A DNA stretch of 64,000 nucleotides, taken from the NCBI GenBank assembly GCA_963809485.1, contig CAWEJX010000020.1, positions 1,056,001-1,120,000 of the forward strand. The letters run 5' to 3'. Origin of the DNA: an uncultured Acidobacteriota bacterium (GTDB taxonomy: Bacteria; Acidobacteriota; UBA6911). The position numbers and the translations under genes were made by a program. Below, one piece after another: positions 28,705 to 48,119 of the stretch. Each line of letters starts with the position of its first letter. Position 1 is the first letter of the stretch. The notes below the pieces were generated by a model that worked only from the letters and a program-made list of their open reading frames with translations, was not told the DNA's origin and made no database searches.

Positions 28705-28825
28705 CCGACCCTCGCCGAACAAATCGGCGTTTGTCAGCGCTTTTGTCAGCGTATCTCAGCGTTTCAAAACACGGAGCTGTCAAACCCTATGAGTCCCCCG
28801 GCAGAGCTGTGGGTTTACCAATAGA
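28705..28825 (-). mobile_element. partial copy (left end + cargo) of IS200/IS605-type non-autonomous element
   Basis: ccgaccctcgccgaacaaatcggcgtttgtcagcgc...ggagctgtcaaaccctatgagtcccccggcagagc...gtttaccaataga; flanked by TGAT on the minus strand. Confidence 0.8.
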
Positions 28826-28950
28826 ATCACCGGGAAAAACCTGGAAATTGCCAATGCGGCTAATGATCAAAAGCCTCCGCTCCGGGATTGATCTTTTTTG
28901 CACTTTCCTATTGTGTTGGCCAATCTCTGACTCGATAATCGCTGGGCGCA

Positions 28951-29163
28951 GTCAGGTACCTCCGGCAAAGCCGGAGGCTTGAAAGATTGGAACCGCTCAA
29001 AGCGGTTGGAGGAGTTACGCCGGTCTTGAACGCTGACTTACGCGGGCAAAAGCCGAACAAATCGGCGTTTGTCAGCGCTTTTATCAGCGTTTCTCAGCGT
29101 TTCAAAATACGGAGCCGTCAAACTCTTTGAGTCCCCCAGCAGCGCCGCGGGTTTACCAATGTA
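28951..29163 (-). mobile_element. non-autonomous IS200/IS605-type element (PATE/MITE-like), copy A
   Basis: gtcaggtacctccggcaaagccggaggcttg...aaccgctcaaagcggtt...tcagcg repeats...ggagccgtcaaactctttgagtccccc...gtttaccaatgta; target TAAT. Confidence 0.85.
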
Positions 29164-29222
29164 ATTATGTTTGATGATGAGCAGTTCGGAAGAAGGGAAT
29201 CATAAGCCGAAGGAGAAACACA

Positions 29223-30556
29223 ATGGCAGCAAAACCGGAGAATTGGAAATCGCTGACGGCGGAAGAAAAAGAAAAATCAGGCTGGACGCCTGGATTCGCG
29301 GAGACGGGATCAAGTTCGAGAGTCCCGAAGCACGCGCAAGATTCATCGAACGCGCAACACGCTTCAGAGACGCCCTGGAAATGAAGAAGCTCCCGGACCG
29401 GGTGCCTATTGCGGGCCTGGGAGGCGCTTTTGTTTACCGGAGAGCCGGCATCCCTCAGAAGGCGACTATGTACGACCGGTGGGAAGAGGCGTCCAAGGCC
29501 GTGATCAGGTTCCACGAAGATTTCCAGCCCGACAGCACGGCGGCCACATTCATGATGTCCGGGGCCTCCATGGAGGTGCTCGGTCAGACCAACATGAAGT
29601 GGGCCGGATACGGCCTGCCCGACGACGTTCAGTACCAATACGTGGAACAGGAATACATGAAGGCCGAGGAATATGATCACTTCCTGCTGGATCCTTCGGA
29701 CTTTGTTTTGCGCCGTTTTCTGCCCCGGATGTACCGGTCTCTAAAAGGGCTCGAAAAGATGGCGAATTTCGGAAGCCAGGGAATCCAGATCGGCGCCCGG
29801 GTGATTTACCCCTTCCTCGACCCCGAGGTGCAGGAAGCGCTGAGCCTGATGAAGAAGGCCGCCGAATTGACGTTGCCGCCGGCGAAGATTTCGATGGAAA
29901 TGTCGAATAAAATCCTCGGGATGGGTTTCCCGCGCCTGTTCATGGGATTCGGGGCGGCTCCCTTCGACGTGGTCGGAGACACTTTGCGGGGCACACGCGG
30001 CGTCATGGTGGATCTCTACCGCTGCCCGGACAAGGTGCTCCGTGCGTGCGAAAAGGTCCTCGACCTCACGCCCGTGCCCGACATCCCGCTGGGCGAGCCG
30101 CCGCTCATCATGATGCCGCTGCACAAGGGCGACGACACGCACATCTCGCGCAAGCAGTTTGAAAAATTTTACTGGCCGACCTTCAAGCAGCTCATGCTGA
30201 ACATGATCGACGAGGGCCTGATACCTTCTCCGTTTGCAGAGGGCACCTACAACCAGCGGCTGGACTATTTGACCGAGCTTCCCAAAGCGTCGGTGTTGTG
30301 GTTCTTCGACCGCACGGACATGCACAAGGCGAAAGACGTCCTCGGCGGTCACAGTCCCATCATGGGCAACGTCCCGATCACGCTGATCGCCACCGGGGCG
30401 CCCGAACAGGTCAAGGCCTGCTGCAAGGACCTCATCGATTATTGCGGCAAGGGAGGGGGATATATTCTGTGCTCGGGAACCCAGCTCGACGACGCCAAGG
30501 AAGAGACCGTCCGGGCAATGATCGATTTCACCAGGGAATACGGAGTCTATAGGTAA
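29223..30556 (+). CDS. uroporphyrinogen decarboxylase/MtaA-CmuA methyltransferase-family protein; 1-bp deletion in A-run at 29266-29270
   Basis: KKLPDRVP, MKAEEYD, APFDVVGDTLRG, FEKFYWPTFK, GNVP, GGGYIL. AAGGAG-ATG 29223 reads MAAKPENWKSLTAEEK and joins RKIRLDAW if one A is restored. Confidence 0.8.
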
Positions 30557-30733
30557 AATCAAACCGATTCCGGCGAATCGAGGGCTTAAGCGATCGAGCC
30601 TATCCAAGCCGCCGGAAGCGTTCGACGGGTCTTAACCGGTCCCATACGCCGGCAAAGGTCCCATGCCTGCGTCTTTTGCCGGCGTATTTCATCCTGCGCC
30701 CGATTCCGGGCGCATCCTGACATCCCCATTCCT

Positions 30734-31744
30734 CTATTGTATCGGGTATCCTTCCGACGTCTTCTTTCGCGCTGAATCCCCTTTATCCGTTCGGATGAGG
30801 AAGAATGCATAGGTCTTGTCGACCTTCTTCGTAATGATCGGGGCGTGCACAAACATCGCCGGGCAGACAGACACCATGGGTTTGTTGAAGTTGTAGATCT
30901 CCTTTTCCGGGCCCATGTACAGATCGATTTCGCTGCCCAGAGACTGCGGCCGGCCCGCGTCGAGGCCCACAAAAACCAGAAACTCGTCCCCGACATGCAC
31001 GTGCGGATCAAATCCCTCCGAGTGCCAGTTGCCCAGCCCTTTGTAGAATCCCCAGGTGAAATTAACGTTGAATCCCTCCAGGCTTTTGGCACGCGGCCAG
31101 GCGATCCAGAATGCGTTTCCCGGCCCCGTCATCTTGGTCACATCCCCCATGGCGGAGGATGAGACTTTTTTGACCAGTTTTGCATATTCCTGAGTTTCCG
31201 CCTGTTTGGCAGGGACCGGAACCTTTGCGGCTTTGTATTCGCCTTCGAGACCAATCTCATAGTGCGCGTAAGGCTTTTCGACCTTCAGGGCCTTGATCGG
31301 GCCGAACGGCATGTCTTTGGGAACGCACACGATGGTGGGAACATCGAAGACATATTTTTCAAAATTCCTGCCCAGGGATATTTCTATCTCCGCGCCCAGG
31401 TAGTTGGGCTTTTCCGGATCGAGGCCGACGAACGCCAGGCAGGTGTCGTAGGGATGCACCAGTCCCTCGTTCTGATAGGCGCCGGGTTTGCTGTAATACC
31501 CGAATGAGAAATTGGTGTTTCTGCGGTTCAGGTCCTTGCCGGACGTGCGGAAAATGGAATCGGCACAGCCCGGCCCTCCCCGCCCCTTCTTGTAGGAAAT
31601 TGCATGAAAATAGCTCTGGTATTTTTTTGCGGCAGCCGCCGCCCGGGCATCCGCGGAGCCTGCAAACGCCAATGCTGCGGCGCCAAAGCCCACATCCTTG
31701 ACGAATTCCCTTCGACTTGTGATCTTTCTTCCTCCAGCAGCCAT
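30734..31744 (-). CDS. Tat-exported protein with two cupin-like domains
   Basis: SRREFVK Tat motif; two repeats HPYD/HVHVGDE..FVGLD...LG(A/S)EI...P(K/A)..H.P. Confidence 0.75.
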   Translation of the reverse strand: MAAGGRKITSRREFVKDVGFGAAALAFAGSADARAAAAAKKYQSYFHAISYKKGRGGPGCADSIFRTSGKDLNRRNTNFSFGYYSKPGAYQNEGLVHPYDTCLAFVGLDPEKPNYLGAEIEISLGRNFEKYVFDVPTIVCVPKDMPFGPIKALKVEKPYAHYEIGLEGEYKAAKVPVPAKQAETQEYAKLVKKVSSSAMGDVTKMTGPGNAFWIAWPRAKSLEGFNVNFTWGFYKGLGNWHSEGFDPHVHVGDEFLVFVGLDAGRPQSLGSEIDLYMGPEKEIYNFNKPMVSVCPAMFVHAPIITKKVDKTYAFFLIRTDKGDSARKKTSEGYPIQ

Positions 31745-31982
31745 GGCCGTTCTCCTCCTGAATAAAGATATTGAACTGTCGATATGGTTCGAGCTGCCTA
31801 TTCTAAAACTGCCGGCTCAGTCCCGCAACGCCATTTCGCACTGGATGCAAAACCAGTCCATCGATGGGGGGCCTCCAGAAACTGTCCAGAAACTGTTCCC
31901 AGATCCGAAACCTTTGGATGCATGCCGGAGGCTAGGAACATTTTCCGGCGTGCCGCTTGAGGCGTGAGGATAAGCCGGAAAA

Positions 31983-32219
31983 GTCAGGTACCTCCGGCAA
32001 AGCCGGAGGCTTGAAAGAGTTGAACCGCTCAAATCGGTTGGACTAATTACGCCGGTCTTGAACGCTGACTTACGCGGGCAAAAGCCGATGAGGCGCTTCC
32101 GATCCCCGCCGAACAAATCCGCGTTTGTCAGCGCTTTTATCAGCGTTTCTCAGCGTTTCAAAATACGGAGCTGTCAAACTCTTTGAGTCCCCCGGAAAAG
32201 CCGGGGGTTTACCAATGTA
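31983..32219 (-). mobile_element. non-autonomous IS200/IS605-type element, copy B
   Basis: Same sequence as copy A plus a ~24-bp internal segment; intact left-end hairpin cccccggaaaagccggggg; target TGAT. Confidence 0.85.
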
Positions 32220-32326
32220 ATCAAAAAAAGCTCGTCCGGAAGTTTGACAAATTCAGGCTCAGAACTTAATAAAAATGGCGGAAAACGGTGATGAACAAAT
32301 TCCACTGCAATATGGAGGTTTGACCC

Positions 32327-32797
32327 ATGAGTTTCATGCCAATCGATTTTCATGAGGATATGGACAGGATGAGAAGGGAAATCGACCGGATCCTGGGTGA
32401 CGACAGGCTTTCCACGTGGACATTTCCGTTCTCGAGAATCTCCTTTCTTCCCGGCCGCGCAGCGAGGGCGTACCCGCTATTAAACATCAGCGAGGACAAA
32501 GACAGCGTCTACCTGGATGCCCTTGCGCCCGGAATTGAACCCAGTACGCTGAAAGTGTCCGTAATCAAGAACCAGCTGACTATTTCCGGAGAAAAGATGC
32601 CACTCCCGGAAACCGTCAAGGACGAGTCAATCCATCGCAGCGAGCGATCTGCAGGACAGTTCGCCCGAAGCCTGTCTCTTACGGTGGACGTGGACAGTGA
32701 CCGTGTCCAGGCCAACTACAACAACGGGATGCTCCGGATAATTCTTCCCAAAGCCGAAGCGGCGAAGCCCAAACAAATAGCGGTAAAAGTGGGCTGA
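32327..32797 (+). CDS. Hsp20/alpha-crystallin small heat-shock protein
   Basis: YPLLNISE...PGI...LTISGEK...HRSERSAGQFARSLSL...ANYNNGMLRIILPK..AKPKQI. Confidence 0.92.
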   Translation: MSFMPIDFHEDMDRMRREIDRILGDDRLSTWTFPFSRISFLPGRAARAYPLLNISEDKDSVYLDALAPGIEPSTLKVSVIKNQLTISGEKMPLPETVKDESIHRSERSAGQFARSLSLTVDVDSDRVQANYNNGMLRIILPKAEAAKPKQIAVKVG

Positions 32798-32833
32798 AAC
32801 GCATACAACTATCGATCATGGAGGTGTAGAAAA

Positions 32834-33247
32834 ATGACCGAAAAAACCGCTTCTCTCACCACTGAAAAACAGGGTGCTTTGCAGACAGCGAGCGAAAAGT
32901 CGCTGGCCACAAGGGATGAAACCCGTTACGTAGCCCCGCCCGTGGATATTTTTGAAACCGAAGACGCGATCGTGGTTATCGCGGATCTTCCAAGCGTCGG
33001 CAAGGAGGACGTGGACATCCGGGTCGAGGACAGCATCCTGACCATAAGGGGAAAAGCCACTTACAGCCCACCGGCCGATTTGCTCCGGGAGGAGTTCAGC
33101 CTGGATGGGTATTTCCGGCAGTTCCAGCTGAGCGATGAGGTGGATCAGGAAAAGATATCAGCCGAAACCAAAAACGGCGTGCTCACCATTCATCTGCCCA
33201 AGGCCGAGAAATCCAAGCCCAGGCAGATCAAGGTAAAAATAGGCTGA
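32834..33247 (+). CDS. Hsp20/alpha-crystallin small heat-shock protein
   Basis: PPVDIFETED...ADLP...LTIRG...FRQFQL...ISAETKNGVLTIHLPK..KPRQI. Confidence 0.92.
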   Translation: MTEKTASLTTEKQGALQTASEKSLATRDETRYVAPPVDIFETEDAIVVIADLPSVGKEDVDIRVEDSILTIRGKATYSPPADLLREEFSLDGYFRQFQLSDEVDQEKISAETKNGVLTIHLPKAEKSKPRQIKVKIG

Positions 33248-33508
33248 TGCCTGGCAGCGGAGACGCTCGCGAACTGACCGTATCAAGCTTTTCAGTTGTT
33301 CGACATCTATCAGTCCGGTCTTGGCAGGGGCGGCCTCGAGGCCGCCCACCGCATGCTCATCGATCCCGGCTGCGGGCTGTTTTCCGTCCCTGCGCATCCC
33401 GGCGAGTTACACTATCCTCAGTTCACTGCTGATAACCGGTTTTCGACGCTTTCCTGTTAGCCGACTGCATCCAACCGGGAATTCGCGAGCGAATCCGGAG
33501 GTGTAACA

Positions 33509-34240
33509 ATGGCAAAAAACTATTACGCGATATTGGGCGTTCTGCCGACGGCCACCCTCGATGAAATACGGTCCGCCTACCGGAATCGGGTGAAACAATT
33601 TCATCCGGATCATTTCGGCAAAGACACATCGCCGTTCCTCAATGTGCAGGAAGCCTACGATTTATTGGGCGATGAGGTCAGCCGAAGTCGGTATGATCAA
33701 AGCCTGAAGAAATCCAGCCCGGAAAAAATGTCCGCGGCAAGCCCCGAGCCTCTGATCGACCGGTCAAGAAGGCCCATGCCGGAGCCGATGAAAGGCCCTC
33801 GCAGGTATGCCGATTTCGGAACCATTTCACCTTTGGAGTCCTTTCGCGGTTTCCGCCCGTCCTATGACGAGATATTTGACAACTTGCTGAATTCCCTTGA
33901 TCTCAGGTCGCACTCGAAGGCCGAAAGCTACCGGACTCTGACTATGGAGGTTCCATTGACGGCGGAGCAGGCGCGACGGGGCGGCAGCCTCCGGGTTGTT
34001 ATCCCCATCCAGAGCACCTGCCCCACGTGCCGGGGCTTAGAGATCCTGGATCTTTTTGAATGCTGGCGGTGCTCCGGGACAGGATCCACCCGCTATGAGC
34101 TTCCCCTTCAGGTGGAGTATCCTGCGGGAATTCAGGATTCCTACCGGATTGCCATTCCTCTGGACCGGTATGGCGTTCCCGATGTCTGCCCGGTTCTCTT
34201 GTTCCGGATCACATCCTCGCACGACATCGAGGAACTATAG
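33509..34240 (+). CDS. J-domain (DnaJ-like) protein with a half zinc-finger
   Basis: NYYAILGV...EIRSAYR...FHPD...VQEAYDLL; CPTCRG and CWRCSGTG. Confidence 0.85.
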   Translation: MAKNYYAILGVLPTATLDEIRSAYRNRVKQFHPDHFGKDTSPFLNVQEAYDLLGDEVSRSRYDQSLKKSSPEKMSAASPEPLIDRSRRPMPEPMKGPRRYADFGTISPLESFRGFRPSYDEIFDNLLNSLDLRSHSKAESYRTLTMEVPLTAEQARRGGSLRVVIPIQSTCPTCRGLEILDLFECWRCSGTGSTRYELPLQVEYPAGIQDSYRIAIPLDRYGVPDVCPVLLFRITSSHDIEEL

Positions 34241-34329
34241 CGTCCCGGTTTGACTGGGCTGCATGACAAGTCCCGGCAGGGGCGGCCTTCCGACCGCTCT
34301 GACAAAAACGGGGACGTCAATCCGCCTAA

Positions 34330-34563
34330 GTCAGGCACCTCCGGCAAAGCCGGAGGCTTGAAGGATTGGAACCGCTCAAGGCGGTTGGAGGAGTTCCACC
34401 GGCCTTGAACGCTGACTTACGCGGGCAAAAGCCGATGAGGTGCTTCCGATCCCCGCCGACCAGATCGGCGTTTGTCAGCGCTTTGGTCAGCGTATCTCAG
34501 CGTTTCAAAATATGGAGCCGTCACACTCTATGAGTCCCCGGGCAGAGCCGGTTTACCAATAGA
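34330..34563 (-). mobile_element. non-autonomous IS200/IS605-type element, copy C
   Basis: Colinear with copy B; abuts TAAT (34567-34564), whose TAA is the stop codon of the SnoaL gene. Confidence 0.85.
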
Positions 34564-34564
34564 A

Positions 34565-35239
34565 TTACTTCACCCCCGTTACGGGGTGCGGGTAGTGGAA
34601 GGGAATGACGAAGATGTCGGGCCAGAATTTCATCCCCTCCGGCTTCAGTTCGTCCGGACCGCGCGGATCCTCGGGGTAAGTTTTGAGATAAGGCGACACC
34701 ATAAGCAGTTTGCCTGAGGAATGCGCCCAGCCTTTGTCGTATTCCGCCTGCCAGACAAGGTTGTAATTGAATACCTTAAATTTCCAGACCCCGTTTTCCC
34801 TGGCATATATGTTTTCGTACACCCCTCCTTCCCAGAACTGGCTCGGGATGGGAGTGGGAACTTTCCGGCTTTCGTGAACTCCGCCCATCAGGAAGCAGCG
34901 GAAGCGTCCTTTGGCAGTCACGCGATCCGGCGCAACATCCACGATATCCTGGACATGAAGGTGCTCGGTCAGGACGCCGTTGGTCGGCCCGTTTACACCC
35001 ATCCCGGCCCCATACATCCGCCTGGCGCCATCCTTGCCCTTGAAGATGCCATTCAGAAAATAGATCAGGCAATCGTCCGCGAAAAGATCCACGATCTCCG
35101 CCATCAGCCATTTATCCATGTAGTAGCCATATTTGAACTGCAGCGTGCGTATGGCCTGTATATCTTCGAGAATGCCATTCCGGTGCGAAAGCTCCTCGAC
35201 CTGCCTCCTCAATGCGGCAATTTCCTCCTCGATTGTCAT
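34565..35239 (-). CDS. SnoaL/NTF2-like domain protein
   Basis: LEDIQAIRTLQFKYGYYMDK...GVYENIY..ENGVWKF...PFHYPHPVTG. Confidence 0.88.
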   Translation of the reverse strand: MTIEEEIAALRRQVEELSHRNGILEDIQAIRTLQFKYGYYMDKWLMAEIVDLFADDCLIYFLNGIFKGKDGARRMYGAGMGVNGPTNGVLTEHLHVQDIVDVAPDRVTAKGRFRCFLMGGVHESRKVPTPIPSQFWEGGVYENIYARENGVWKFKVFNYNLVWQAEYDKGWAHSSGKLLMVSPYLKTYPEDPRGPDELKPEGMKFWPDIFVIPFHYPHPVTGVK

Positions 35240-35282
35240 TCCGGCCTCCTGTGGATGATGGATTTACAGTATGAAAAACCTT

Positions 35283-36092
35283 TCATTTCCTGGCGGCCCG
35301 GGCCTGCCGCAGCATTTCGTCCAGATCGTCTGAAAGCTCCGTATAGGATCCCGACAGCTCGTCGTAGCGGCCCGAGGCCAGGCTCAGGCATCTTTGCGCG
35401 CAGCGTTCCAGATCCGCCAGCGCGTCGGGTTTGGCCTTGCGCTCCTTCAATCGCTGGATCATCTCAGGCTTCCAGCGCTGAGCCCCCGGATCTCTCATGG
35501 TGATTTCCGCCAGCTCGGTTATTGAAAAGCCCGGATCGATGGAAAAAGCGCTGATGCCGAATTCCCTGGTTTCACTGTCCACCAGCTGTATCAGACGGTT
35601 CTGGGCGCATTTTCCGAGGCAGTAGGGCGACATGCTTGCGTCCAGCCGGTGGGATCCCATGGCGGAGACCATGATGATGCGTCCCGCCCGCCGCTCGATC
35701 ATGGACGGCAGGATTTCCCTGATGAACATGAAGGGGGCGCGGATGTGAACCTCCTGGGCGAACCACCACTCATCGGGGTCCGCAACCCAGATCGGCGCGA
35801 ACGGTCCGGGAATGCCGGCGTTGTTGACCAGGAGCGTAATCGGCCCGAATTTCTCCGCAGTTGCGCGCACCGCGCGCGAAACGTCCTCCGGCCGGGTCAC
35901 GTCTCCGCCCACGGCAAGCCCCCGGCCGCCAGCGGCCTCGATCTCGGCTGCTGTTTTGTCAAGCTCGGCTTGAGTGCGTGAAGTAACCGTTACAGCGGCG
36001 CCTTCCGCAGCGAACCTGAGGGCGATCGCTTTGCCGAATCCTCGTCCGCCACCCGTAATTAGTGCCACCTGTCCCGAAAGCATTCCGTTCAT
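35283..36092 (-). CDS. short-chain dehydrogenase/reductase
   Basis: TGGGRGFG, LVNNAG, S..., YCLGK (YxxxK), IDPG. Confidence 0.92.
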   Translation of the reverse strand: MNGMLSGQVALITGGGRGFGKAIALRFAAEGAAVTVTSRTQAELDKTAAEIEAAGGRGLAVGGDVTRPEDVSRAVRATAEKFGPITLLVNNAGIPGPFAPIWVADPDEWWFAQEVHIRAPFMFIREILPSMIERRAGRIIMVSAMGSHRLDASMSPYCLGKCAQNRLIQLVDSETREFGISAFSIDPGFSITELAEITMRDPGAQRWKPEMIQRLKERKAKPDALADLERCAQRCLSLASGRYDELSGSYTELSDDLDEMLRQARAARK

Positions 36093-36291
36093 ATTTTCCT
36101 CTTGCGGCTGTATGGATTTGCATCCCGCTGGAAAAAAGGATTTTAAGGACGAACAAAACTCGTAATCCGTCCCCGCTGATTTTAAGCCTTATGTCTGCAT
36201 TCTGTACCGGTCAGGGCTTGGGATCCCGACCATGATTTCCGATTCTATCAGAAAGGGCGAAGGAAGAGCTGAAAATATATATCGCATTGTA

Positions 36292-36329
36292 TCAGCGTAT
36301 GTCGGCGTTTTGTCAGCGTCCGTCAGCGT
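36292..36329 (-). repeat. 4x ACGCYGA phased module
   Basis: Reverse complement acgctgacgg-acgctgacaaa-acgccgacat-acgctga (10/11/10). Confidence 0.75.
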
Positions 36330-36486
36330 TATAGTTGAAGAGATGTCCGGCGAGCCGGTGACAGCCGGCGATGCGGAACTTGACCCTCCGGCAGGGTTTC
36401 ACTATACTGCGGCCCACCAGAACACATTAGAACGAGTTCTCATTTAATCAAATGAAAATCCGGCCCACCCTTATTGAAGGAGGTTC

Positions 36487-37029
36487 ATGGCCATGGCGAG
36501 ATCAAAATACGGGAAATATTTTATGACGGAGCCGATAGAAATAGGCCCGATGCTTCACGTATGCGGCGAGGACGGCTGCATTGGCGCCAAATTCGACGGT
36601 TTTCCGATCGAAATGCAGTTGCTCTGCCTCAGCAAGCCGGGCGTCATGATTCACAAGCCCCACGCACACGAGGTCGACGAACTGTTTTTCATTTTCGGCG
36701 GCAATCCGCAAAATTATTTTGAGTTTGGCGCGGAAATCGAAATCATGATGGGCGAGGAGCATGAACGGCACATCGTCAACAAGACCACGATCATCTATAT
36801 TCCCAAGGGAGTGATCCATTGCCCGATAACGACGCTGAAGGTCGACAAACCGGTGCAGTGGATGCATGTCCTGTTCCAGGGCAAATACCATATGGGAGCC
36901 GGCGACGACATGTCGAGCCACCCCAGGCACTCGGACCGCCATCCTTACGACAAGGATGAGATTGTCAAACTCAGAAAAGGCATTACGGAAGGCATACTGG
37001 GCAAAAAACCCGTAGCCGCCCGAAGATAA
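36487..37029 (+). CDS. cupin-like protein
   Basis: PHAHEVDE..FGGNP...GAEIE..MGEE.E.HIVNK...IPKGVIHCP; AAGGAGG RBS. Confidence 0.8.
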   Translation: MAMARSKYGKYFMTEPIEIGPMLHVCGEDGCIGAKFDGFPIEMQLLCLSKPGVMIHKPHAHEVDELFFIFGGNPQNYFEFGAEIEIMMGEEHERHIVNKTTIIYIPKGVIHCPITTLKVDKPVQWMHVLFQGKYHMGAGDDMSSHPRHSDRHPYDKDEIVKLRKGITEGILGKKPVAARR

Positions 37030-37076
37030 AACGAGGCCGGCGGCTTCTGCCCCAGGGCCGCCCGCATTTACGTTTG

Positions 37077-37129
37077 AGGCTGCTGCCGGCTCCTGCCATA
37101 GTCGATGGGAGCCCGTGGCAGCCTTTTTT
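37077..37129 (+). terminator. possible intrinsic terminator
   Basis: AGGCTGC...GGCTCC / GGAGCC...GCAGCCT stem followed by a T-run. Confidence 0.4.
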
Positions 37130-37175
37130 GTTGCATACCAGCGGGAATGCTGCCCGCAGGAAGGGAGATTATCTA

Positions 37176-39508: not shown

Positions 39509-39526
39509 ATTGGTTTCTCAAGCAAA

Positions 39527-39557
39527 GTTGAATGTTGAACGTTTGAACGTTGAACGT
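39527..39557 (-). repeat. (ACGTTCA)n heptamer tandem repeat
   Basis: gttgaatgttgaacgtttgaacgttgaacgt; inverted relative at 43700-43736, short copy at 24477-24492. Confidence 0.55.
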
Positions 39558-39600
39558 CAAAAACGCATGAGTGTTGGCGATTCTGCTCGCCAAATGCCGC

Positions 39601-41664
39601 TTAAGCCGCCGTTTCCCGGCGGGCGTCGAAGTAGAGGCCGATCGCCAGGAGCAGGAACATGGCCAGGCCGATCCAGTTGTGCCATCCCTCCAGCCAGGGG
39701 CCGTAGATTTTCACAAGGTCGGGCACAATCGACTTCCCGGAAGAATCCTCGATGAACCTGAGAAGTGCGGCAAGAACGCCGACCAATGCCCCGCCGGCGA
39801 TGAAGCCCGAAGCGATCAAAGTTCCTTTCTCGTGCCGCGCTTTGCTCAGCGTGCTGTTTTTCGAAGAGTGCTGCAGGAACCACGCGACCGCCGCTCCGAG
39901 GACGAGCGGTGAATTCAGCTCCATGGGCAGGTACATGCCGAGCGCAAAAGCAAGCGCCGAGACGCCGCACATCGCCACCACAACCGCGAATACGGCCCCA
40001 AGCGCGTAGAGAAACCACGGGGCTCCCTCCGATGCCATAACGCCCCGCAGCACCGCGGCCATCGCGTTCGGCTGCGGCGCCGGCAGCGGATTCGGGTGTC
40101 CCGGCCCCGGCGCGAATCCGTATACCTTCGACATGAGCAGGATGACCGCCGTGGTCGCGGCGGAAGCCGCGATCGCGCCGACCATGTTGCTGATTTCGAT
40201 ACGCTTCGGCGTGGCGCCGAGCCAGTAGCCGATCTTGTATTGAGTCACCAGCGATCCGGACATGGATAGCGCCGTGCAGACGACGCCGCCGATCAGCAGA
40301 ACCTGCAGCATGCCGGATTCCCCGCCCAGTCCGAGTCGCGAGAGAACGACCGCCGTGATGATCAGCGTGGTCAGCGTCATGCCGGAAATCGGCGTAATCG
40401 AGATCATCGCGATGGCCCAGGCGGAAACGGAAGCGAACAGGAATGCGATGACGAGCGTCAGCAGGACGGACGTTAGAGAAATCTTCGTTGCCCCGCCCAT
40501 CCCCGACAGAACGGAAAAGCGGAAATATAGGAACACCAGGAGTCCGGTAGCAGCGATCCCCAGAAGGACCGCGGACATGGGCAGCGCGCGATCGGTGCGC
40601 TCCGCGGCGCCGCCGACGTGTTTATTCCGGGCCAGGCGGACAATCTCTCCGGTGGCCTGCCGGGTCGCCTGGACGATCACGGGAGACATTTTGAGGATCG
40701 AGAGTATGCCGGCCGCAAAGATGCCGCCGATGCCGATCGGGCGCACATAATCAAAAAAGATGTCTTCGGCAGGCATTTGCGCCAGCGGCGTCGCGCCGAC
40801 GGCAATCGCGCCCGGAATGAACTGGCCCAGATGAGCGAACAGCGGCACCAGCACGAAGAACGAAATGAAGGAGCCGGCCAGGATGATGGAGGCATAGTGG
40901 ATGCCCATGATGTACCCGAGGCCCAGAACCGCGGCCGACGTGTTCATCGTGAACACCGCCTTGTATTTGTTGGTGACGTCGCTCATCACGCCGATGGCGC
41001 CGGTCGTGAAGTTTTCCGCCCAGGCGCGCATCGACGGGCCTACAAAATCAAATGCTGCGGCCGTAATGGCAGAGTAGCTCAGCACGATGGCGCTGTGCCC
41101 GCCCCGCTTGCCGGCCATCAGGATCTCGGTTGTGGCGCGCCCCTCGGGATAGGGCAGTTTGCCGTGAAGGTCGCGCACGAAGTACCGGCGGAAAGGGGCA
41201 AGGAAGAAGATTCCGAGATATGCGCCGAGCAGCGGCACAAGAAATATCTGGAACAGGGACGAGCGGTCCTCCAATCCCAGGATATAAATGGCCGGCATGG
41301 TAAAAACCGAGCCGCCGGCGATAATCCCGGAGGTTGCGCCAATCGCAAGCACATTGACGTTCTCCAGCAGAGTCGAGGCTCGGCGCCTGAAAAACTTCAC
41401 GGCCAAAACCGAGAAGCCGACTGCAAGAATCGAGATCGGAATGGCCGACTCGATCCCCTGGCCCAGCTTCAGGGCAATGTAGGTCGCGGCAGCCGAGAAA
41501 ATGATGGACCACAGGAAACCCTGAAGGATCGAGCGCACCGTCAGTTCGGGCAGGGATTGCCGCGCGGGAATAACCGGCTCGTACGACTCGCCAGGCTTCA
41601 GCTCGCGAAATGCATTCTCCGGCAAACGGGCTTCGTCCCGGTTCACCACAGGTTCTGCCGTCAT
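39601..41664 (-). CDS. OPT-family oligopeptide transporter
   Basis: ELTVRS, YIALKLG...AIPISIL, FTMPA, LPYPEG.AT, PAPQPNAMA, LGMYLP, ASGFIAGGAL. Confidence 0.92.
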   Translation of the reverse strand: MTAEPVVNRDEARLPENAFRELKPGESYEPVIPARQSLPELTVRSILQGFLWSIIFSAAATYIALKLGQGIESAIPISILAVGFSVLAVKFFRRRASTLLENVNVLAIGATSGIIAGGSVFTMPAIYILGLEDRSSLFQIFLVPLLGAYLGIFFLAPFRRYFVRDLHGKLPYPEGRATTEILMAGKRGGHSAIVLSYSAITAAAFDFVGPSMRAWAENFTTGAIGVMSDVTNKYKAVFTMNTSAAVLGLGYIMGIHYASIILAGSFISFFVLVPLFAHLGQFIPGAIAVGATPLAQMPAEDIFFDYVRPIGIGGIFAAGILSILKMSPVIVQATRQATGEIVRLARNKHVGGAAERTDRALPMSAVLLGIAATGLLVFLYFRFSVLSGMGGATKISLTSVLLTLVIAFLFASVSAWAIAMISITPISGMTLTTLIITAVVLSRLGLGGESGMLQVLLIGGVVCTALSMSGSLVTQYKIGYWLGATPKRIEISNMVGAIAASAATTAVILLMSKVYGFAPGPGHPNPLPAPQPNAMAAVLRGVMASEGAPWFLYALGAVFAVVVAMCGVSALAFALGMYLPMELNSPLVLGAAVAWFLQHSSKNSTLSKARHEKGTLIASGFIAGGALVGVLAALLRFIEDSSGKSIVPDLVKIYGPWLEGWHNWIGLAMFLLLAIGLYFDARRETAA

Positions 41665-43454
41665 GAATTCACCTCCTCGCTGTACTTTTCCATAACCGAT
41701 TCGATAACCCTGCGCGACAGGCTGTGGTAATTCGCCTTCCCCTGCTCGTAGATCGCCCTGGCAAGGGCCCGGGTGCGGGCATGTTTGCCCAGGGCGGAGT
41801 AGAGCGGACGCAGGTACTTCATCCGGCCGACCTCCAGCAGCACTTCCCGCACACGCTCGAAAACCGGTTCATAATCAGACCCGGCGGCGATCGTCAGCCA
41901 TTCGACCAAAATCTCGTAGTTTCCACGCCGCGTAAGCCGCAGGTTTTGATCCAGCCAATCCAGCGACGCGTGGTCGAGCCGGCGCGGAAGGCTTTGGAGA
42001 AAGACGAGCAGTTCGCTTGAATCCCAGTCAGCGAGTTGCTGCGGCGACGGGAGCTTTCCGGCAGCAAAAGCCTCTGCTGCCGCCACGAGGTCATCCAGTT
42101 GCTCTGACTTGAAAATCGGGGCGTTGTCGGGCATGCCCGGCCGGTACAGCCATGCGTCTGCGTTCACTGCCGCAGCCGCTCCGGGCAGTTCCTGTTCCAG
42201 AAAGGCCAGGAATTCCTCGGTGGTTATGGAGGTGAAGCGGAAGGCATTGATATACGCCCGCATGAAGCGGTCAAAACTTTCCCGCCCTGCATGGCGCTCC
42301 AGGAGCGTGACGAAGCGGGCGCCTTTTTCATACGGAATCGATGAGAAAGCTTCATCGGGATCCACCCCCTTCAGGTCGGTGCGGAGCTTCGTGAGCGGCG
42401 AATCCGATCCGAAGCGGGCGACCGACTCGTCCAGCGCCTTCTGGCCAATAGCCCATCGCAGCGCAGACGACTTTTCGCCGTGAATGGCGTCCAGGATCCT
42501 CCGTTCGGCCCATGTCGTGAAGCCCTCGTTCAACCAGAAGTGATCCATGCTGGCGTTGGTGACCAGGTTGCCGGTCCAGGAGTGGGCCAGTTCGTGCGCG
42601 ATGACGTCGACCAGCGAACGATCGCCGGCTATCACGGTCGGGGTGAGGAATGTCATGCGCGGGTTCTCCATGCCTCCATACGGGAAAGCCGGCGGGAGGA
42701 CCAGCATGTCATACCGGTCCCATTCATAGGGGCCAAAAAGGCGCTCGGCGGTCGCAATCATCTGCTCGATCTCGCCGAATTCATGGGCAGCCTTGTCAAC
42801 CATACCCGGCTCCGCCCACACCCGCGCGCGCGGCGAAAGATCGCACGGTTGCAGGTCTCCGACCGCAATCGCAAAAAGGTATGGAGGAACAGGCTGGGGC
42901 ATATGGAAAAGGAAAGTGCGCGTACCGCGTCCCCGTTCGGGCAGAATGCCTGCGGGCCCGGCCGACATCACGGCAGAGAGCTTATCCGGAACCGTAACCG
43001 CGGCATTGTACGACACGCGCACCCGCGGCGTATCCTGGCACGGAATAATAGTGCGGGCGTGGATCGCCTGGCACTGCGAATACATGAACGGATGGCGCTT
43101 GCCCAGCGTCAGCTCAGGCTCGAACCACTGCAGCGCGACAGCTTCACTCGAGGTCGTATAGTCAATGGTTATCAGGGCGGTTCCTTCCGGCAGGTCGAGT
43201 CTCAGCCGCCGCCCCAGGATCGGGTCTTCCCCGCCGAACTCGAAGGGGATGTCCTCTCCGTCCTGACCATAGGCGGAGCGGATAGCGAGCGCTTTGGTAT
43301 CCAGATCGAAAAAGCCGGAAGAGGGCTTCTCCAGTTCAAGGGTCACGGATCCATTGATCTGGCGGTTTTCGAAGTCGACGAACCAGTTCAGGCGCAGGTG
43401 CTTTGTACGCGGCTGGTAATTGTCATAATGGGAATGCGGATCGATAGTAGCCAT
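41661..43454 (-). CDS. M1-family aminopeptidase (leukotriene A4 hydrolase-like)
   Basis: SQCQAIHAR, FPYGGMENP, HELAHSW, FWLNEG, PYEKG, GRMKYLRPLY; ATGA overlap with the OPT gene. Confidence 0.95.
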   Translation of the reverse strand: MATIDPHSHYDNYQPRTKHLRLNWFVDFENRQINGSVTLELEKPSSGFFDLDTKALAIRSAYGQDGEDIPFEFGGEDPILGRRLRLDLPEGTALITIDYTTSSEAVALQWFEPELTLGKRHPFMYSQCQAIHARTIIPCQDTPRVRVSYNAAVTVPDKLSAVMSAGPAGILPERGRGTRTFLFHMPQPVPPYLFAIAVGDLQPCDLSPRARVWAEPGMVDKAAHEFGEIEQMIATAERLFGPYEWDRYDMLVLPPAFPYGGMENPRMTFLTPTVIAGDRSLVDVIAHELAHSWTGNLVTNASMDHFWLNEGFTTWAERRILDAIHGEKSSALRWAIGQKALDESVARFGSDSPLTKLRTDLKGVDPDEAFSSIPYEKGARFVTLLERHAGRESFDRFMRAYINAFRFTSITTEEFLAFLEQELPGAAAAVNADAWLYRPGMPDNAPIFKSEQLDDLVAAAEAFAAGKLPSPQQLADWDSSELLVFLQSLPRRLDHASLDWLDQNLRLTRRGNYEILVEWLTIAAGSDYEPVFERVREVLLEVGRMKYLRPLYSALGKHARTRALARAIYEQGKANYHSLSRRVIESVMEKYSEEVNS

Positions 43455-43916
43455 GCGGCACGCCTTTCCAGCGAGATCGGGGAATCAGCACTCTTTCCTT
43501 TGCAAGACCATACGCCAAATTCAGCTCCATTGAAATCAGTTTTGCGCGCACGAATCCGGTCAACCTGCACTCAAGAAGCGGATTCGCACCTTCCGGTCGT
43601 GCCCATTGTCTTCCAGCCTGAAAACCATCCCTGCGCGAAGTTCCGCAAGCATGGCGGAAATTGCCGAAACCCTCGCTTCCTGCCGATTCCAGCGATGCGC
43701 ATTCCCCGTTTCACGTTCAACGTTCCACATTCCACAGCCGTAGTTTGAATGAAGGGCGTACGCAATGAAACCGCCAACCCGCACAGATAGGCAAACAGCC
43801 CTAATCTCCGCTCCATTCTGACCGAAAAGCAAGGTAGGGCATCATTTTGCGCGGCTGGCAGGACATGGCTGCCGGATGCCCGCGACACGGCAAACATTTG
43901 GAGGTCCGGTAAGCCT

Positions 43917-46253
43917 GTGGATCGACACGACCTGGCAGTCCAGGGCACGAACGATGGGATATGGGATTGGGATCTGACGACAAGCCGGATCCACTACTCT
44001 CATGGATGGATCTCCCTGCTGGGCCTTGGGGAAGGCGAGTTCGACAATACGCCGGAAGAGTGGTTCCGAAGGATTCATCCCGAGGACATCCTCTCGGTCA
44101 AGCGCGAGATCGAGACCCATCTGCAAGGAAAATCCGCGCGGTTCGAGATCCAGCACCGGATGCTTCATCACGATGGCTGCTACCGTTGGCTGTCATGCCG
44201 CGGATTAATCACCCGGGACGACAAGGGGCGGGCGACGCGCATCCGGGGCATCCACGAGGACATTACATCCGAAAAAGCCGTGGATTCGCTTACCGGCCTT
44301 CCCAACCGTCTTCTGCTCCTGGAGCGGCTGACGCGCTCCATCGAAAGGGCCAGGAAGCAGCAGGATTTTCTTTTCGGCATCCTGATCCTGGATCTGGACC
44401 TCTTCGAATCCGGGATCAGCCGGCTGGAGACCCTGGACTGCGACTCCCTGGTCATCGCGGCCGCGCGCCGCCTGGAAACAGCTTTGAGGACCAGGGATAG
44501 CCTGATAGGCGCAGGGCACGCAGACTTGATCGCGCGTTCCGGCGGCGAGGAATTTATTATCCTGCTCGAAGGGCTGAGCGAGGTTGGAGAAGCAAAAAGA
44601 GTTGCCGAACGGCTGCTGAAGGTGATCCTGGCCCCCTTTACTTTTAATGGCCGCGAAGTCTCCCTGTCCGCAAGCATCGGCATTGCGTTGAGCGTAACGG
44701 GCTATCGCACCGCAGAGGAAGCCCTGAGGGATGCGGACACGGCCCTGCATCGTTCAAAGGCATTGGGCAAATGCCGCTGCGAAGTCTTTGACACGGCTGC
44801 CCTGCAATCCACCCAGGTCCGGAACCAGACTGAAAAGGAACTCCATGGGGCCCTGGGCCGAAACGAGTTCTTGGTCTGCTATCAGCCGATCCTGTCGCTG
44901 GCGTCGAATAAAATCGCTGGTTTTGAAGTCCTGGTCCGGTGGAACCACCCGTCCCGGGGCATGATATTGCCGTCGGAATTCATCCCGATTGCCGAGAAAA
45001 CCGGACTCATCAATATTTTGAACCGGTGGGTCATGCAGCAAGCCTGCTGGCAGCTGAAATCCTGGCGAACGGATCCGCGCATTTCCAAAGACCTGTGGAT
45101 TTCGCTGAATCTGTCCGGCGCCCAATTCCTGCATCCCGACCTGGTTAATGAAATCAGCGGGATCTTAAGCGAAACCGGCCTCGACGCCGATGGCCTCCTG
45201 CTGGAGCTGACTGAGGGAACTGTGATGCAAAATCCCGAAGAGGCTCGAAGACTGCTGATGCAGCTCCGCCTCATGGGCGCGAGGATCGGTCTTGACGATT
45301 TCGGCACGGGATATTCTTCGCTTGCTTACCTGCGCCGGTTCCCCCTGGATTTTCTGAAAATCGATTATTCGTTCATCCGGAGCATCGAGAGCGGCTCGGA
45401 TCCCCTGGAAATTATCCGGACGATATGCAGGCTCGGCCATCAGTTGGGCCTGCGTGTCATCGCCGAAGGAATTGAAACTCCCCGCCAGCTGGACCTGGTC
45501 CGGTCGCTGGACTGCGAATTCGGCCAGGGATTCCTTTTTTCAAAAGCGGTCAGCGGCGAGCAGGCGGAGATCCTGTTGGTGGAGGGATTCATACCCCGGG
45601 AGGACACTCGCCCGGCAGAGTCCGGACCGGACGCCACACAGGAACCGGCAAGGAAGCCGCAATTCAGAATAAAGCGGAAATATGCTTTTGCAGGTCTGAC
45701 ACTCCTTGCCCTGCTGCTCCTGGCAGGCTTCCTTGACCGGCTGAATCGTCCGAATGCTTCTCCCGTAGCTAACACTTCCCCGCCGGCCGCTGCGGTCAAG
45801 CTGGAAAAACCCGCGACCCCATCGGCCATTCAGGAAGTCGAGCCAAAGCCCCTTGCCAGGGAGACACAAAAGGCCTCCAAGATGAATAGCGGCCTGAAAA
45901 CTCCGGCCCCCGCACCCAAGGCTGAGATGAGGAAAGCGGCCCCGGCCATTTACAGATTCCCGGTTGTGCACGATCATCGTCTGGGCAGTTGTGAGGGAGT
46001 CCTGAGAATCGGGAGCGACGGCATCGCTTTTATCGCGAACAACGGGAAGCACAGCTTTGCCCTGAAACATTCCGAATGCCGGTGCACTATGAATCCCGAT
46101 CGGTTGACCATCCGGTCCGGATCGATGGTTTTCCGCTTTAAATCCGACTCCCTCGATGAAGAGGATAACCGGTCCAAACTCTCCGAAATCTACCGCAGCG
46201 TTACAAAGCTTAACCCCTCCACGGAACCAGGTAACGTCGACTCACGCCCATAA
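43917..46253 (+). CDS. PAS-GGDEF-EAL protein with C-terminal TM helix and extracytoplasmic domain
   Basis: GTNDGIWDWD (PAS), DSLTGLPNR, SGGEEF, FEVLVRW, LELTE, DDFGTGYSSL, AEGIE; then TM (YAFAGLTLLALLLLAGFL), Pro/Ala/Lys linker, HDHRLGSCEG domain. Start uncertain. Confidence 0.9.
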   Translation: MDRHDLAVQGTNDGIWDWDLTTSRIHYSHGWISLLGLGEGEFDNTPEEWFRRIHPEDILSVKREIETHLQGKSARFEIQHRMLHHDGCYRWLSCRGLITRDDKGRATRIRGIHEDITSEKAVDSLTGLPNRLLLLERLTRSIERARKQQDFLFGILILDLDLFESGISRLETLDCDSLVIAAARRLETALRTRDSLIGAGHADLIARSGGEEFIILLEGLSEVGEAKRVAERLLKVILAPFTFNGREVSLSASIGIALSVTGYRTAEEALRDADTALHRSKALGKCRCEVFDTAALQSTQVRNQTEKELHGALGRNEFLVCYQPILSLASNKIAGFEVLVRWNHPSRGMILPSEFIPIAEKTGLINILNRWVMQQACWQLKSWRTDPRISKDLWISLNLSGAQFLHPDLVNEISGILSETGLDADGLLLELTEGTVMQNPEEARRLLMQLRLMGARIGLDDFGTGYSSLAYLRRFPLDFLKIDYSFIRSIESGSDPLEIIRTICRLGHQLGLRVIAEGIETPRQLDLVRSLDCEFGQGFLFSKAVSGEQAEILLVEGFIPREDTRPAESGPDATQEPARKPQFRIKRKYAFAGLTLLALLLLAGFLDRLNRPNASPVANTSPPAAAVKLEKPATPSAIQEVEPKPLARETQKASKMNSGLKTPAPAPKAEMRKAAPAIYRFPVVHDHRLGSCEGVLRIGSDGIAFIANNGKHSFALKHSECRCTMNPDRLTIRSGSMVFRFKSDSLDEEDNRSKLSEIYRSVTKLNPSTEPGNVDSRP

Positions 46254-46487
46254 AAGCGCTGACCAACGCCGAGTCCCAATCCGCCTTTTCCATGATTCCT
46301 GCTGCTGCGCGGCAGCCTCATCCCATTTTGCTTTGGGCGGCCCCGAGGTGCGATTATAATTAGCAGTGATTCGTCAGTCATCACCTTGCAGGCCGTCTGA
46401 AGCCGGCTTGCGGAACTGGCTCGTAACGTATGCATCCCATCCCTGGTTCGCCGGTCGCGATCCGCAAATCATTTGAGGAAATCACCC

Positions 46488-47972
46488 ATGTCAACCGCAA
46501 TTGAAGGCCTGAAGCCGGAATTGGTCTGGAAGTATTTCGCGGAAATATCCCGCGTCCCCCGCTGCTCAAAAAATGAAGCCGCCATGACACGATATGTCCT
46601 GGATACCGCAAAAAAGCTGGGATTGGAGGCGAAATCCGACAAATTCGGCAACGTCGTGGTCCGAAAACCGGCTTCTGCCGGCCGCCGGGAAGTCCGCTCG
46701 GTCGCGCTGCAGGGACACCTCGACATGGTGTGCGAAAAGAACAAGGACAAAGTCCATGATTTCCTCAAAGACCCGATCGAACTTGTCCGCAAGGATAATT
46801 TCCTGATGGCAAACGGCACGACGCTCGGTGCGGACAACGGCATCGCAGTCGCGACCAACCTGGCAATCATGGAAGACCGATCGCTGGAACACGGCCCGCT
46901 GGAATTTCTGTTTACTGTGGATGAAGAAACAGGGTTGACCGGCGCCCATAACCTGCAAGCGGATTTTCTGGAAAGCCGGACGCTTTTGAACCTGGATTCG
47001 GAAGAAGAGGGGGCGCTCTATGTCGGCTGCTCCGGCGGGAGGGACACGACCGGGGTCTGGGACATTCACCTGGAGCAAGCCCCGGCTTCCATGAGGGCCG
47101 TACGGATCAGCGTCACAGGCCTGAAGGGCGGCCACTCCGGTCTGGAAATCGACAAGGGCAGGGGTAATGCCATCAAGATCATGGGCCGGGCTCTCACGGG
47201 ACTCAGCACTATCGGCGCCCGCATGTCATCCATCAACGGAGGCAACAAACGCAACGCCATCCCGCGGGAATGCGAAGCCGTTGTGCGTATTCCCGCCAAA
47301 AATCTGGAATCGGCCGGGAAGATTGTCGGTGACCTGAACGGCACGGTCAAAGCCGAACTGGCCGGCACCGAGCCCGATCTGATGTTAAGCATGAATGAAA
47401 CGGGCACGGGCAAAAATGGGAAAGTCCTACGCAAGGCGGAACAGCAGAGGATCCTGCTGACGATTTCCGGGCTTCCCCACGGTGTGATAAAAATGAGCGC
47501 CGATATCCCCGGGCTTGTGGAGACCTCGATGAATCTGGCCGTCATCCAGACAACCTTGAAATCCGTTCGAATCTCGACGAGCCAGCGAAGCTCCGTCGCA
47601 TCGGAAATCGTCGAGATCGCGGAAACCGTTTCATCCATCTTCAAGCTGGGCCGCGCATCGATTGAGGGATCCGACGGATACCCGGGCTGGAAGCCGAATA
47701 TGGATTCGCCGGTTTTGGCCCTGGCGAGGGAAACCTATCGATCGCTGTTCGGGAAAGATCCCGAGGTCAAGGCTATCCACGCCGGGTTGGAATGCGGAAT
47801 CATCGGAGAGCGTTTTCCCGGCATGGATATGGTATCGTTCGGCCCAACTCTCGAAGGCGTTCATTCGCCCGACGAAAAGATCCACATCGACACGGTCGAG
47901 AAGTTCTGGATCTTCCTGCTGGAGATCCTCAAAAGAGCGAGTCAGGCACCTCCGGCAAAGCCGGAGGCTTGA
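46488..47972 (+). CDS. pepD: aminoacyl-histidine dipeptidase (M20C)
   Basis: LQGHLDMVCEK, TTLGADNG, VDEETG, NLDSEE, GLKGGHSG, IHAGLECG, HSPDE; the last ~10 codons and the stop come from the mobile element. Confidence 0.93.
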   Translation: MSTAIEGLKPELVWKYFAEISRVPRCSKNEAAMTRYVLDTAKKLGLEAKSDKFGNVVVRKPASAGRREVRSVALQGHLDMVCEKNKDKVHDFLKDPIELVRKDNFLMANGTTLGADNGIAVATNLAIMEDRSLEHGPLEFLFTVDEETGLTGAHNLQADFLESRTLLNLDSEEEGALYVGCSGGRDTTGVWDIHLEQAPASMRAVRISVTGLKGGHSGLEIDKGRGNAIKIMGRALTGLSTIGARMSSINGGNKRNAIPRECEAVVRIPAKNLESAGKIVGDLNGTVKAELAGTEPDLMLSMNETGTGKNGKVLRKAEQQRILLTISGLPHGVIKMSADIPGLVETSMNLAVIQTTLKSVRISTSQRSSVASEIVEIAETVSSIFKLGRASIEGSDGYPGWKPNMDSPVLALARETYRSLFGKDPEVKAIHAGLECGIIGERFPGMDMVSFGPTLEGVHSPDEKIHIDTVEKFWIFLLEILKRASQAPPAKPEA

Positions 47973-48119
47973 AAGATTGGAACCGCTCAAAGCGGTTGGA
48001 CTAGTTACGCCGGTCTTGAACGCTGACTTACGCGGGCAAAAGCCGACCCTCGCCGAACAAATCGGCGTTTGTCGGCGCTTTTATCAGCGTATCTCAGCGT
48101 TTCAAAACACGGGTTACCA
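47941..48119 (-). mobile_element. non-autonomous IS200/IS605-type element, copy D (left-end hairpin deleted)
   Basis: gtcaggcacctccggcaaagccggaggcttg...cgtttcaaaacacgg then directly gttacca. Confidence 0.82.

Follow-up and report, generated by a model that had tools for sequence, protein, structure and literature searches.

Abundant short repeats in an uncultured acidobacterium are very probably non-autonomous derivatives of an IS200-group insertion sequence

The window analysed here is a stretch of 64,000 nucleotides from an uncultured Acidobacteriota bacterium (C20:1056001-1120000, on contig CAWEJX010000020.1 of GenBank assembly GCA_963809485.1, which comprises 6.04 Mb in 21 contigs and is called G000 below). 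It contains several copies of a short repeat that recurs throughout the genome. These repeats are very probably palindrome-associated transposable elements (PATEs), non-autonomous derivatives of an insertion sequence (IS) of the IS200 group within the IS200/IS605 family, and sequence homology points to an ISMex34-like parent. The name PATE reportedly comes from elements of Haloquadratum walsbyi. Elements of this kind are already known; what is unusual here is the high copy number and the lack of a matching transposase gene in the assembly. A sequence-only reading of the window had proposed a family of PATEs or MITEs (miniature inverted-repeat transposable elements) of IS200/IS605 type, and its boundaries, empty sites, tnpA-bearing homologues and the covariation of its guides and cleavage sites all speak in favour of that proposal.

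The proposed active strand of the element, here called the top strand, is the minus strand of the window. A repeat search over positions 26000-53000 returns four to five co-oriented copies, alignable across ~240 columns, and together with the alignment it recovers the four copies located earlier. Three are complete short forms on the minus strand, and direct reading gives the same boundaries to the base: copy A (28951-29163, 213 bp), copy B (31983-32219, 237 bp) and copy C (34330-34563, 234 bp). On the plus strand, copy A starts with GTCAGG and ends with CCAATGTA; its target, TAAT on the top strand, lies outside the element in the flank (29164-29167). The top strand of the element reads T(A/G)AT / T-NN-ATTGG-TAAA-hairpin ... 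CAAG-hairpin-T(A/G)CC-TGAC / T, the spaced slashes marking the boundaries. In copy B, on the minus strand, the target TGAT (32220-32223, flank) is followed by the left guide tetranucleotide (G_L) TAAA at 32208-32211 and by the left-end subterminal hairpin, CCCCCGG-loop-CCGGGGG, at 32189-32207. An interior palindrome with arms of TCAGCG and CGCTGA repeats at ~11-nt spacing, the passenger module, occupies 32061-32157. The right guide (G_R) CAAG at 32010-32013 abuts the 5' side of the foot of the right-end subterminal hairpin, CCTCCGG-CTTTG-CCGGAGG (31991-32009), and the right-end cleavage site (C_R) TGAC follows at 31983-31986. The left-end hairpin of the family is CCCCCGG-CTCTG-CCGGGGG. Both end hairpins are perfect 7-bp stems with 5-nt loops and are computed to fold as single-stranded DNA, and the right-end region has a further small hairpin, AACCGCTTTGAGCGGTT, 5' of the guide CAAG.

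A blastn search with copy B against the whole assembly gives 547 high-scoring segment pairs (HSPs). Chained together, they form 337 loci that span 84,046 bp (1.39% of the genome). Both ends are present at 207 of these loci, the right-end side only at 49 and the left-end side only at 51; 30 are internal pieces. On the top strand, conservation ends sharply outside ...CCTGAC (253 ends) and outside TRAT (R, A or G; 246 ends). Viewed on the plus strand, it begins at GTCAGG, preceded by A in 201 of the 253 ends with background one base further out, and at the other end runs through ...GGTTTACCAAT-NN-AAT(T/c)A, with background beyond. The subterminal hairpin described for each end in the window is conserved across these 246 and 253 ends. 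The target is TAAT at 160 and TGAT at 38 of 231 left ends, together 198, with the left guide TAAA at 199; the right guide is CAAG at 204 of 242 right ends, where the cleavage site is TGAC in 211 and the next base T in 195. The TRAT and TGAC boundaries derived from a handful of copies thus hold genome-wide. The two termini differ, in keeping with the earlier statement that terminal inverted repeats are lacking; the sole long inverted repeat is subterminal and is formed by the two hairpins. It had also been pointed out that the right-end boundary could be 1 nt off: T stands on both sides, and by sequence alone this ambiguity persists. In the accessible part of PMC5934647, the +1 pocket of the IS608 transposase TnpA is described as disfavouring purines, which would explain the T at both +1 positions with the boundary unmoved.

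Empty sites are available for comparison in G006, which belongs to the same genus as G000 and is one of 30 relatives sampled (labels G002-G024 denote related genomes), and in two public metagenome runs, X2 and X3, represented by assembled contigs only. The G006 orthologue of the copy C site reads ...CCGCTTAT/ATTACTTC... and has the length of the window region minus 34330-34563; at its junction, on the top strand, stands a TAAT identical to the target of copy C (34564-34567, minus strand). Contigs from both metagenomes bridge the site without the element, from 34308 to 34575 in X2 and from 34308 to 34566 in X3, and the 33 and 24 bridging letters are the flank in diverged form. In X3 the length is exactly as predicted for an empty site; in X2 there is one base more. 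Among eight insertions into other repeats that were compared with uninterrupted paralogues, six fit the boundaries and two are too diverged to read. Empty sites of three sorts (one orthologous, two metagenomic, six paralogous) fit precise insertion without target duplication, as had been read from the window copies themselves. Copy B is probably missing from its orthologous site in G006, where a spacer of ~170 bp stands in place of 384 bp and divergence of the left flank obscures the junction. The region of copy A, including one gene, is absent from G006 altogether.

In four relatives (G002:C286, G007:C580, G024:C107 and G019:C59), a Y1 tnpA gene lies exactly between homologues of both family ends and runs from the left end to the right end on the proposed top strand. 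With one in-frame TGA read through, the G007 TnpA scores 134.9 bits against NCBIfam transpos_IS200 and 123.2 bits against Pfam Y1_Tnp, and the HVH motif and C-terminal Y of a typical IS200 TnpA are visible. The supposition that the enzyme is encoded elsewhere is borne out to the extent that a Y1 tnpA flanked by the same type of hairpin exists in these four relatives and across a wide clade, but none is present in the G000 assembly. A search for related loci returned 80 from many phyla, with TnpAs that are 63-71% identical; they include a RefSeq-annotated ISMex34-family element on plasmid p2META1 of Methylorubrum extorquens AM1. PATE-like hairpins occur at 76 of the 80 loci, and in alignments the PATEs and the IS elements of this clade agree over ~45 nt at the left end and ~60 nt at the right. 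Clade members of the type in L048 and L037, with an intact TnpA, have almost the same ends as the PATEs.

The ends follow the guide and cleavage code of IS608, in which cleavage position 1 pairs with guide position 2, position 2 with 1, and position 4 with 4. The 4:4 pair is taken from IS608 structures. The first two pairs correspond to A+16:T-3 and A+17:T-4 of IS608 in the consulted portion of PMC5934647, and the T-4/A-2 contact, the end geometry and the guides are described in the accessible sections of PMC3201880. Within the family, TAAA predicts TAnT and CAAG predicts TGnC, and both are observed. For the clade, we required a 7-bp stem with a 5-nt loop, took the 4 nt 5' of the stem as guide, and looked for the predicted tetranucleotide upstream of the left guide, at a distance of 7-13 nt, or downstream of the right hairpin, at 3-7 nt. 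For left ends the rule holds at 71 of 75 loci, against 7.6 expected by chance, and in 16 of 19 guide classes; for right ends it holds at 56 of 66 loci, against 5.0 expected, and in 5 of 13 classes. When guides were permuted among loci, no shuffle out of 5000 reached the observed locus counts at either end; the loci are mutually related, so that the class counts are the fairer measure. Left-end pairs of guide and target include TAAA/TAAT, TAAG/TAAC, TAAC/TAAG, TAAT/TAAA, AAAT/TTAA and AAAA/TTAT, and further GAAA/TCAT, CAAC/TGAG, AGAC/CTAG, AGTT/CTAA and AAGC/TTAG; right-end pairs include AAAG/TTAC, CAAG/TGAC, CAAT/TGAA and GAAG/TCAC. Natural variants in L095 and G019 suggest that a guide changed from TAAA to TAAG would move the target from TAAT to TAAC. 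This strong covariation upholds the code that the sequence-only reading had applied to the window copies.

The orientation of the elements follows replication, with the proposed active strand on the lagging-strand template relative to an inferred origin. Most contigs are strongly biased, with plus to minus counts of 78:4 on C20, 0:24 on C6, 21:1 on C1 and 11:0 on C16. The sole Bac_DnaA match in the genome lies on C7 (454563-455039), where 17 of 19 loci left of dnaA (454,563) are in plus orientation and 13 of 15 to its right in minus orientation; the flip falls between 440,690 and 483,361, and the minimum of the cumulative GC skew is at ~420 kb. Outside C7, element orientation matches the sign of the contig's GC skew at 258 of 303 loci. 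The flip at dnaA and this agreement place the version of the element on the window's minus strand on the G-rich strand, that is, on the lagging-strand template. Genes do not explain the bias, since long open reading frames (ORFs) are split nearly evenly between the strands (426:398 on C20) and neighbouring long ORFs lie on the element's strand at random (364 of 674). For IS608, ISDra2 and other family members, an active strand on the lagging-strand template is reported in the available portion of PMC5027513; a keyword search of the literature for strand bias of IS200-derived MITEs or PATEs returned eukaryotic MITE papers only.

By homology with IS608 and ISDra2, transposition would proceed as follows. 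A dimer of a Y1 HUH transposase, acting in trans, would bind both hairpins while the top strand, as part of the lagging-strand template, is single-stranded. The 4-nt guides would pair with the cleavage tetranucleotides, TAAA with TAAT or TGAT and CAAG with TGAC, and the strand would be cut 3' of TAAT and 3' of TGAC. The element would then exit as a single-stranded circle, leaving a donor sealed without a scar, and the circle would be pasted 3' of another TAAT in single-stranded DNA at the replication fork. From analogy with these systems we infer mobilisation of the family in trans by a Y1 TnpA, and likewise the catalysis, the circle intermediate, the source of the transposase and continued movement; present-day mobility of the family is unproven.

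Several observations weigh against this reading. Neither the Y1_Tnp profile nor tblastn with the G007 TnpA finds a cognate tnpA in the G000 assembly, which is 95.67% complete with 7.32% contamination. Four Y1_Tnp matches occur there, none of them flanked by family ends: an IS200 pseudogene at C6:298547 (TAG at about codon 24, right end truncated; hairpin CGCCGCC-TCT-GGCGGCG, target TAAT, guide TAAA), an intact 150-aa IS200-type Y1 gene at C15:225627 amid arrays of other small palindromes, a truncated match at C20:492361, and a 279-aa ORF at C20:1133001 with a sub-threshold REP_Tyr_transpos match (71.6 bits, cut-off 80). The best tblastn match to the cognate clade in G000 is the TAG-interrupted C6 pseudogene with its different hairpin, at 52% identity. 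G006, the only other copy-rich genome, is also without a cognate among its three Y1 matches. All four end-flanked tnpA copies in relatives are damaged: that of G002 has an N-terminal deletion and its contig stops within the right end, that of G007 has the one in-frame TGA and a right-end hairpin broken by another insertion, that of G024 has an internal deletion, and that of G019 (guide TAAG, with TAAC upstream) has a frame disruption by our reading. The guide rule is missed at 4 left and 10 right ends of the clade, most of the right-end misses being cases where the script chose the wrong hairpin, and 33 of 231 targets in G000 are other than TRAT. The orientation bias is weak on C8 (29 to 18), and oriC is placed solely on the evidence of dnaA, the GC-skew minimum and the orientation flip.

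An autonomous copy in G000 was also sought by pairing lone halves within 12 kb, which gave three pairs; the one that was read (C16, 4.6 kb) encloses ordinary metabolic genes. No TnpB domain (PF07282) was found in the 95.67%-complete assembly, and a reading of the element interior as an omega-RNA was dropped for this reason.

Three alternatives explain the repeats differently. The least improbable, itself very unlikely, regards them as domesticated repeats of the repetitive extragenic palindrome or bacterial interspersed mosaic element (REP/BIME) type that the host retains for a structural or regulatory role and that owe their spread to a REP-associated tyrosine transposase (RAYT), with no descent from an IS. 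Their high copy number and mostly intergenic position (37 of 337 locus midpoints lie inside long ORFs) resemble such repeats, and both the intact Y1 gene on C15, surrounded by other small palindrome arrays, and the 279-aa ORF with its sub-threshold REP_Tyr_transpos match offer conceivable enzymes. However, the elements are 213-402 bp long with two different ends, not palindromes of ~35 nt, and these ends are homologous to the ends of tnpA-bearing IS200 elements. By profile score the C15 gene falls under transpos_IS200; its product shares only 27% identity with the cognate clade, and the hairpins beside it are different. REP/BIME units are single palindromes of ~20-40 nt near a RAYT gene, a description that does not apply to the family; no unit adjoins a Y1 gene in G000.

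The second alternative holds that the interior TCAGCG palindrome is the true amplifying unit, multiplied by recombination or an unknown enzyme, and that the IS200-type ends are incidental. The palindrome does occur alone: 55 of the 268 triple CAGCG arrays in the genome lie outside family loci, against 1 for a control motif, and a pattern search finds ~56 palindromes with an AT-rich centre, some of them in tandem, which cluster on C7 and C8. Some of these lie inside copies of one PATE subfamily (L117), whose interior has an AT-rich centre. Copies nevertheless resemble one another exactly as far as the IS200-type termini, not just as far as the palindrome, the breakpoints of metagenome contigs with diverse flanks fall at these two positions, and target motif, strand bias and empty sites belong to the whole element, which makes the palindrome highly improbable as the unit of amplification. 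A classical MITE moved by a DDE transposase is a negligible prospect: the elements are small, numerous and devoid of an ORF and have a 41-nt subterminal inverted repeat of 71% complementarity, but this repeat is internal and due to two similar hairpin palindromes, the termini differ (GTCAGG... against ...CCAATGTA on the plus strand), there is no target duplication, and so strong a replication strand bias is unexpected from double-strand cut-and-paste.

The repeats come in two main forms of ~240 bp and 402 bp. Among 197 copies with both terminal motifs, 95 measure 200-260 bp and 82 measure 380-420 bp, 51 of them exactly 402 bp. The 402-bp copies have a median identity of 97.0% to their own consensus, with a closest pair at 99.4%, while the short forms have a median of 90.4%. 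In the 402-bp form the centre is enlarged to arms of ~60 bp, and its top strand folds at -137.6 kcal/mol (z -13.6); in the short form, folding places a helix that closes the interior just inside both end hairpins. The elements had been described as lacking an ORF. The sole frame in the 402-bp form, 64 codons long, was considered as a hidden gene and rejected: it shows no coding signal, with 50, 71 and 72 substitutions at the three codon positions, 55 synonymous against 138 non-synonymous changes, and an intact frame in 36 of 56 copies. The ~45-nt loop of the 402-bp central palindrome occurs in two reverse-complement orientations (56 to 24, with 2 unclear), which suggests either repeated inversion between the arms or two lineages. 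The 402-bp copies are found genome-wide, none of them complete in the window; an example (L118) is at G000:C9:100400-100900.

Among the 30 relatives, many copies occur only in G006 (33 matches among those listed); nine others have short matches to the element ends only. A plasmid collection searched with the element gave just two end matches of ~50 nt, 84-86% identical. No public run contained at least half of the sampled words, and the three RNA or possibly RNA entries contained 0.05-0.06 of them. Rfam at gathering thresholds gave no match in the whole window.

The folded interior may have a role in movement. We suggest that a zipped interior would bring both ends together in single-stranded DNA: if the interior zips up and a helix forms inside the end hairpins, the ends would lie side by side whatever the length of the element. 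A speculative and rather doubtful extension is that the passenger is an adaptation to single-strand transposition, with bursts driven by a visiting transposase or by a non-cognate resident Y1 enzyme. The idea of such an enzyme stems from the lack of a cognate tnpA in G000 and G006, although copy C is absent from its G006 site, copy B is probably absent too, and the closest 402-bp pair is 99.4% identical. A visiting enzyme may have been carried by a transient mobile element, and the resident candidate may be the intact 150-aa Y1 gene on C15. A zipped passenger could also account for the 402-bp form being the most recent and most homogeneous of the bursts.

The PATE interior is a version of a palindrome module that also stands free in the genome. 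The free-standing palindromes consist of 3-4 CGCTGA-type repeats, an AT-rich centre (e.g. AAAAATATATATAAATTTTTT) and 3-4 TCAGCG repeats, at ~11-nt spacing. In the window they lie at 22740-22846 and, on the minus strand, at 57630-57724, 3212-3251 and 46244-46272; elsewhere they cluster between unrelated genes at C8:607-670 kb and C7:715-784 kb. Stand-alone tandem arrays with periods of 117-154 bp are found at C7:251470-251975, C8:627665-628253 and C8:639877-640691. The free-standing palindromes may be protein-binding sites, another mobile repeat or decayed copies.

Further pieces of the family in the window call for some corrections. Copy D (47941-48119, minus strand) is present, but it is not intact: the right end and interior are kept, whereas the left-end hairpin has been lost along with the terminal bases, and there is no TRAT after it. 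The fragment placed at 28705-28825 is real and longer, extending back to 28688; 28688-28825 (minus strand) is a half copy of the 402-bp form, made up of the right arm of its central palindrome and the left end, with the target TGAT at 28826-28829. Related sequence does exist around 26939-27125, where 26927-27125 (plus strand) is an old, degenerate copy in the opposite orientation with 70-73% identity. Within the proposed fragment 51930-52000, only a weak relic of the left-end region is found (51958-51997, minus strand; 80% over 40 nt, E 9e-5). The hairpin at 60919-60937, suggested as a possible family fragment, has neither a guide nor a cleavage motif alongside and no BLAST match, and is not counted. 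The half copy, copy A and a 461-aa ORF make up a segment of ~2.1 kb (28627-30721) that is absent from G006, the two family copies lying at the edge of this presence/absence difference between G000 and G006; homologues of the ORF occur in G003, G005, G012 and G015.

Other small elements were met along the way. A sibling IS200 element is dead in a different manner in each of two species: the G000 copy (L001, C6:297047-300400) has a TAG stop and has lost its right end, and a near-identical copy in G006 (L033, C43:36030-37550) has a frameshift and a damaged right-end hairpin. The C15 gene (L002, C15:224127-227471), the only intact Y1 gene in the assembly, is surrounded by two further kinds of small palindrome, of the types CCCGGCCTT-AAAGGCCGGG and CCGTCGC-GCGACGG, in arrays with a ~143-bp period, an arrangement like that of REP/BIME. 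A ~190-bp insertion, a small element of another sort that has terminal inverted repeats (CACACTGTTATACACAAG...), interrupts the right-end hairpin of the G007 tnpA locus (L011, G007:C580:800-2000).

A second non-coding repeat family in G000 is probably another IS200-type PATE family. Represented by C8:143826-144056, it gives at least 80 BLAST HSPs (e.g. C20:1215338 and C1:140911). Its right end reads AAAG-CCTCCGG-CTCTG-CCGGAGG-ATAC-TTAC, the guide AAAG standing with TTAC as the rule predicts. Its strand bias runs contig by contig in the same way (17:1 on C20), and copies of the first family have inserted into it.

Together, the family and the 80-locus clade, with 19 different left guides, provide a check of the IS608 rule in natural sequences and favour the idea that in this IS200 clade three DNA bases, readable from the sequence, determine where an element inserts. 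Annotation can now be given to about 340 intergenic sites, 1.4% of the genome, and to a second, related family, and the orientation of the elements serves as a free marker of replication direction for each contig of a draft assembly. So large and relatively young a PATE population, in a genome with no cognate transposase of its own, leads one to ask where the enzyme originated.

REP/BIME repeats with their RAYTs resemble the family in being Y1-related, hairpin-based, high-copy and intergenic, but differ in size, whereas the family has two distinct ends, homology to IS ends and a specific target. A literature search for the four 19-nt hairpin strings found no occurrence.

[quoted passage not shown] Its hairpins are perfect 7-bp stems with 5-nt loops, and its spacing is tighter, target and guide being 8 nt apart and the hairpin 4 nt from TGAC, where the IS608 cleavage sites lie 19 and 10 nt from the hairpin feet.

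PATEs of Geobacillus stearothermophilus and Halanaerobium hydrogeniformans are likewise short, retain only IS200/IS605 ends and are presumed to be moved in trans, according to the available portions of PMC7290912 and PMC10055086. By the same accounts, H. hydrogeniformans has one PATE-like sequence and G. stearothermophilus 'several' in a set of 47 elements, compared with 337 loci here. The passenger of our family differs in being a repeat palindrome and not an omega-RNA, and there is no resident cognate tnpA. Ends built in the same way are found in the ISMex34-family element and its clade, with hairpins of the type CCCCCGG-CTTTG-CCGGGGG and the same guide rule; the ISMex34-family copy has the guide AGTT with CTAA upstream and the guide AAAG with TTAC downstream, and its TnpA is 65% identical to the G007 TnpA that lies between PATE-like ends. 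The guide and target pairs of the family, TAAA/TAAT and CAAG/TGAC, are common to only part of this clade, and while the clade elements are ~0.7 kb long and carry tnpA, the family has a palindrome in its place.

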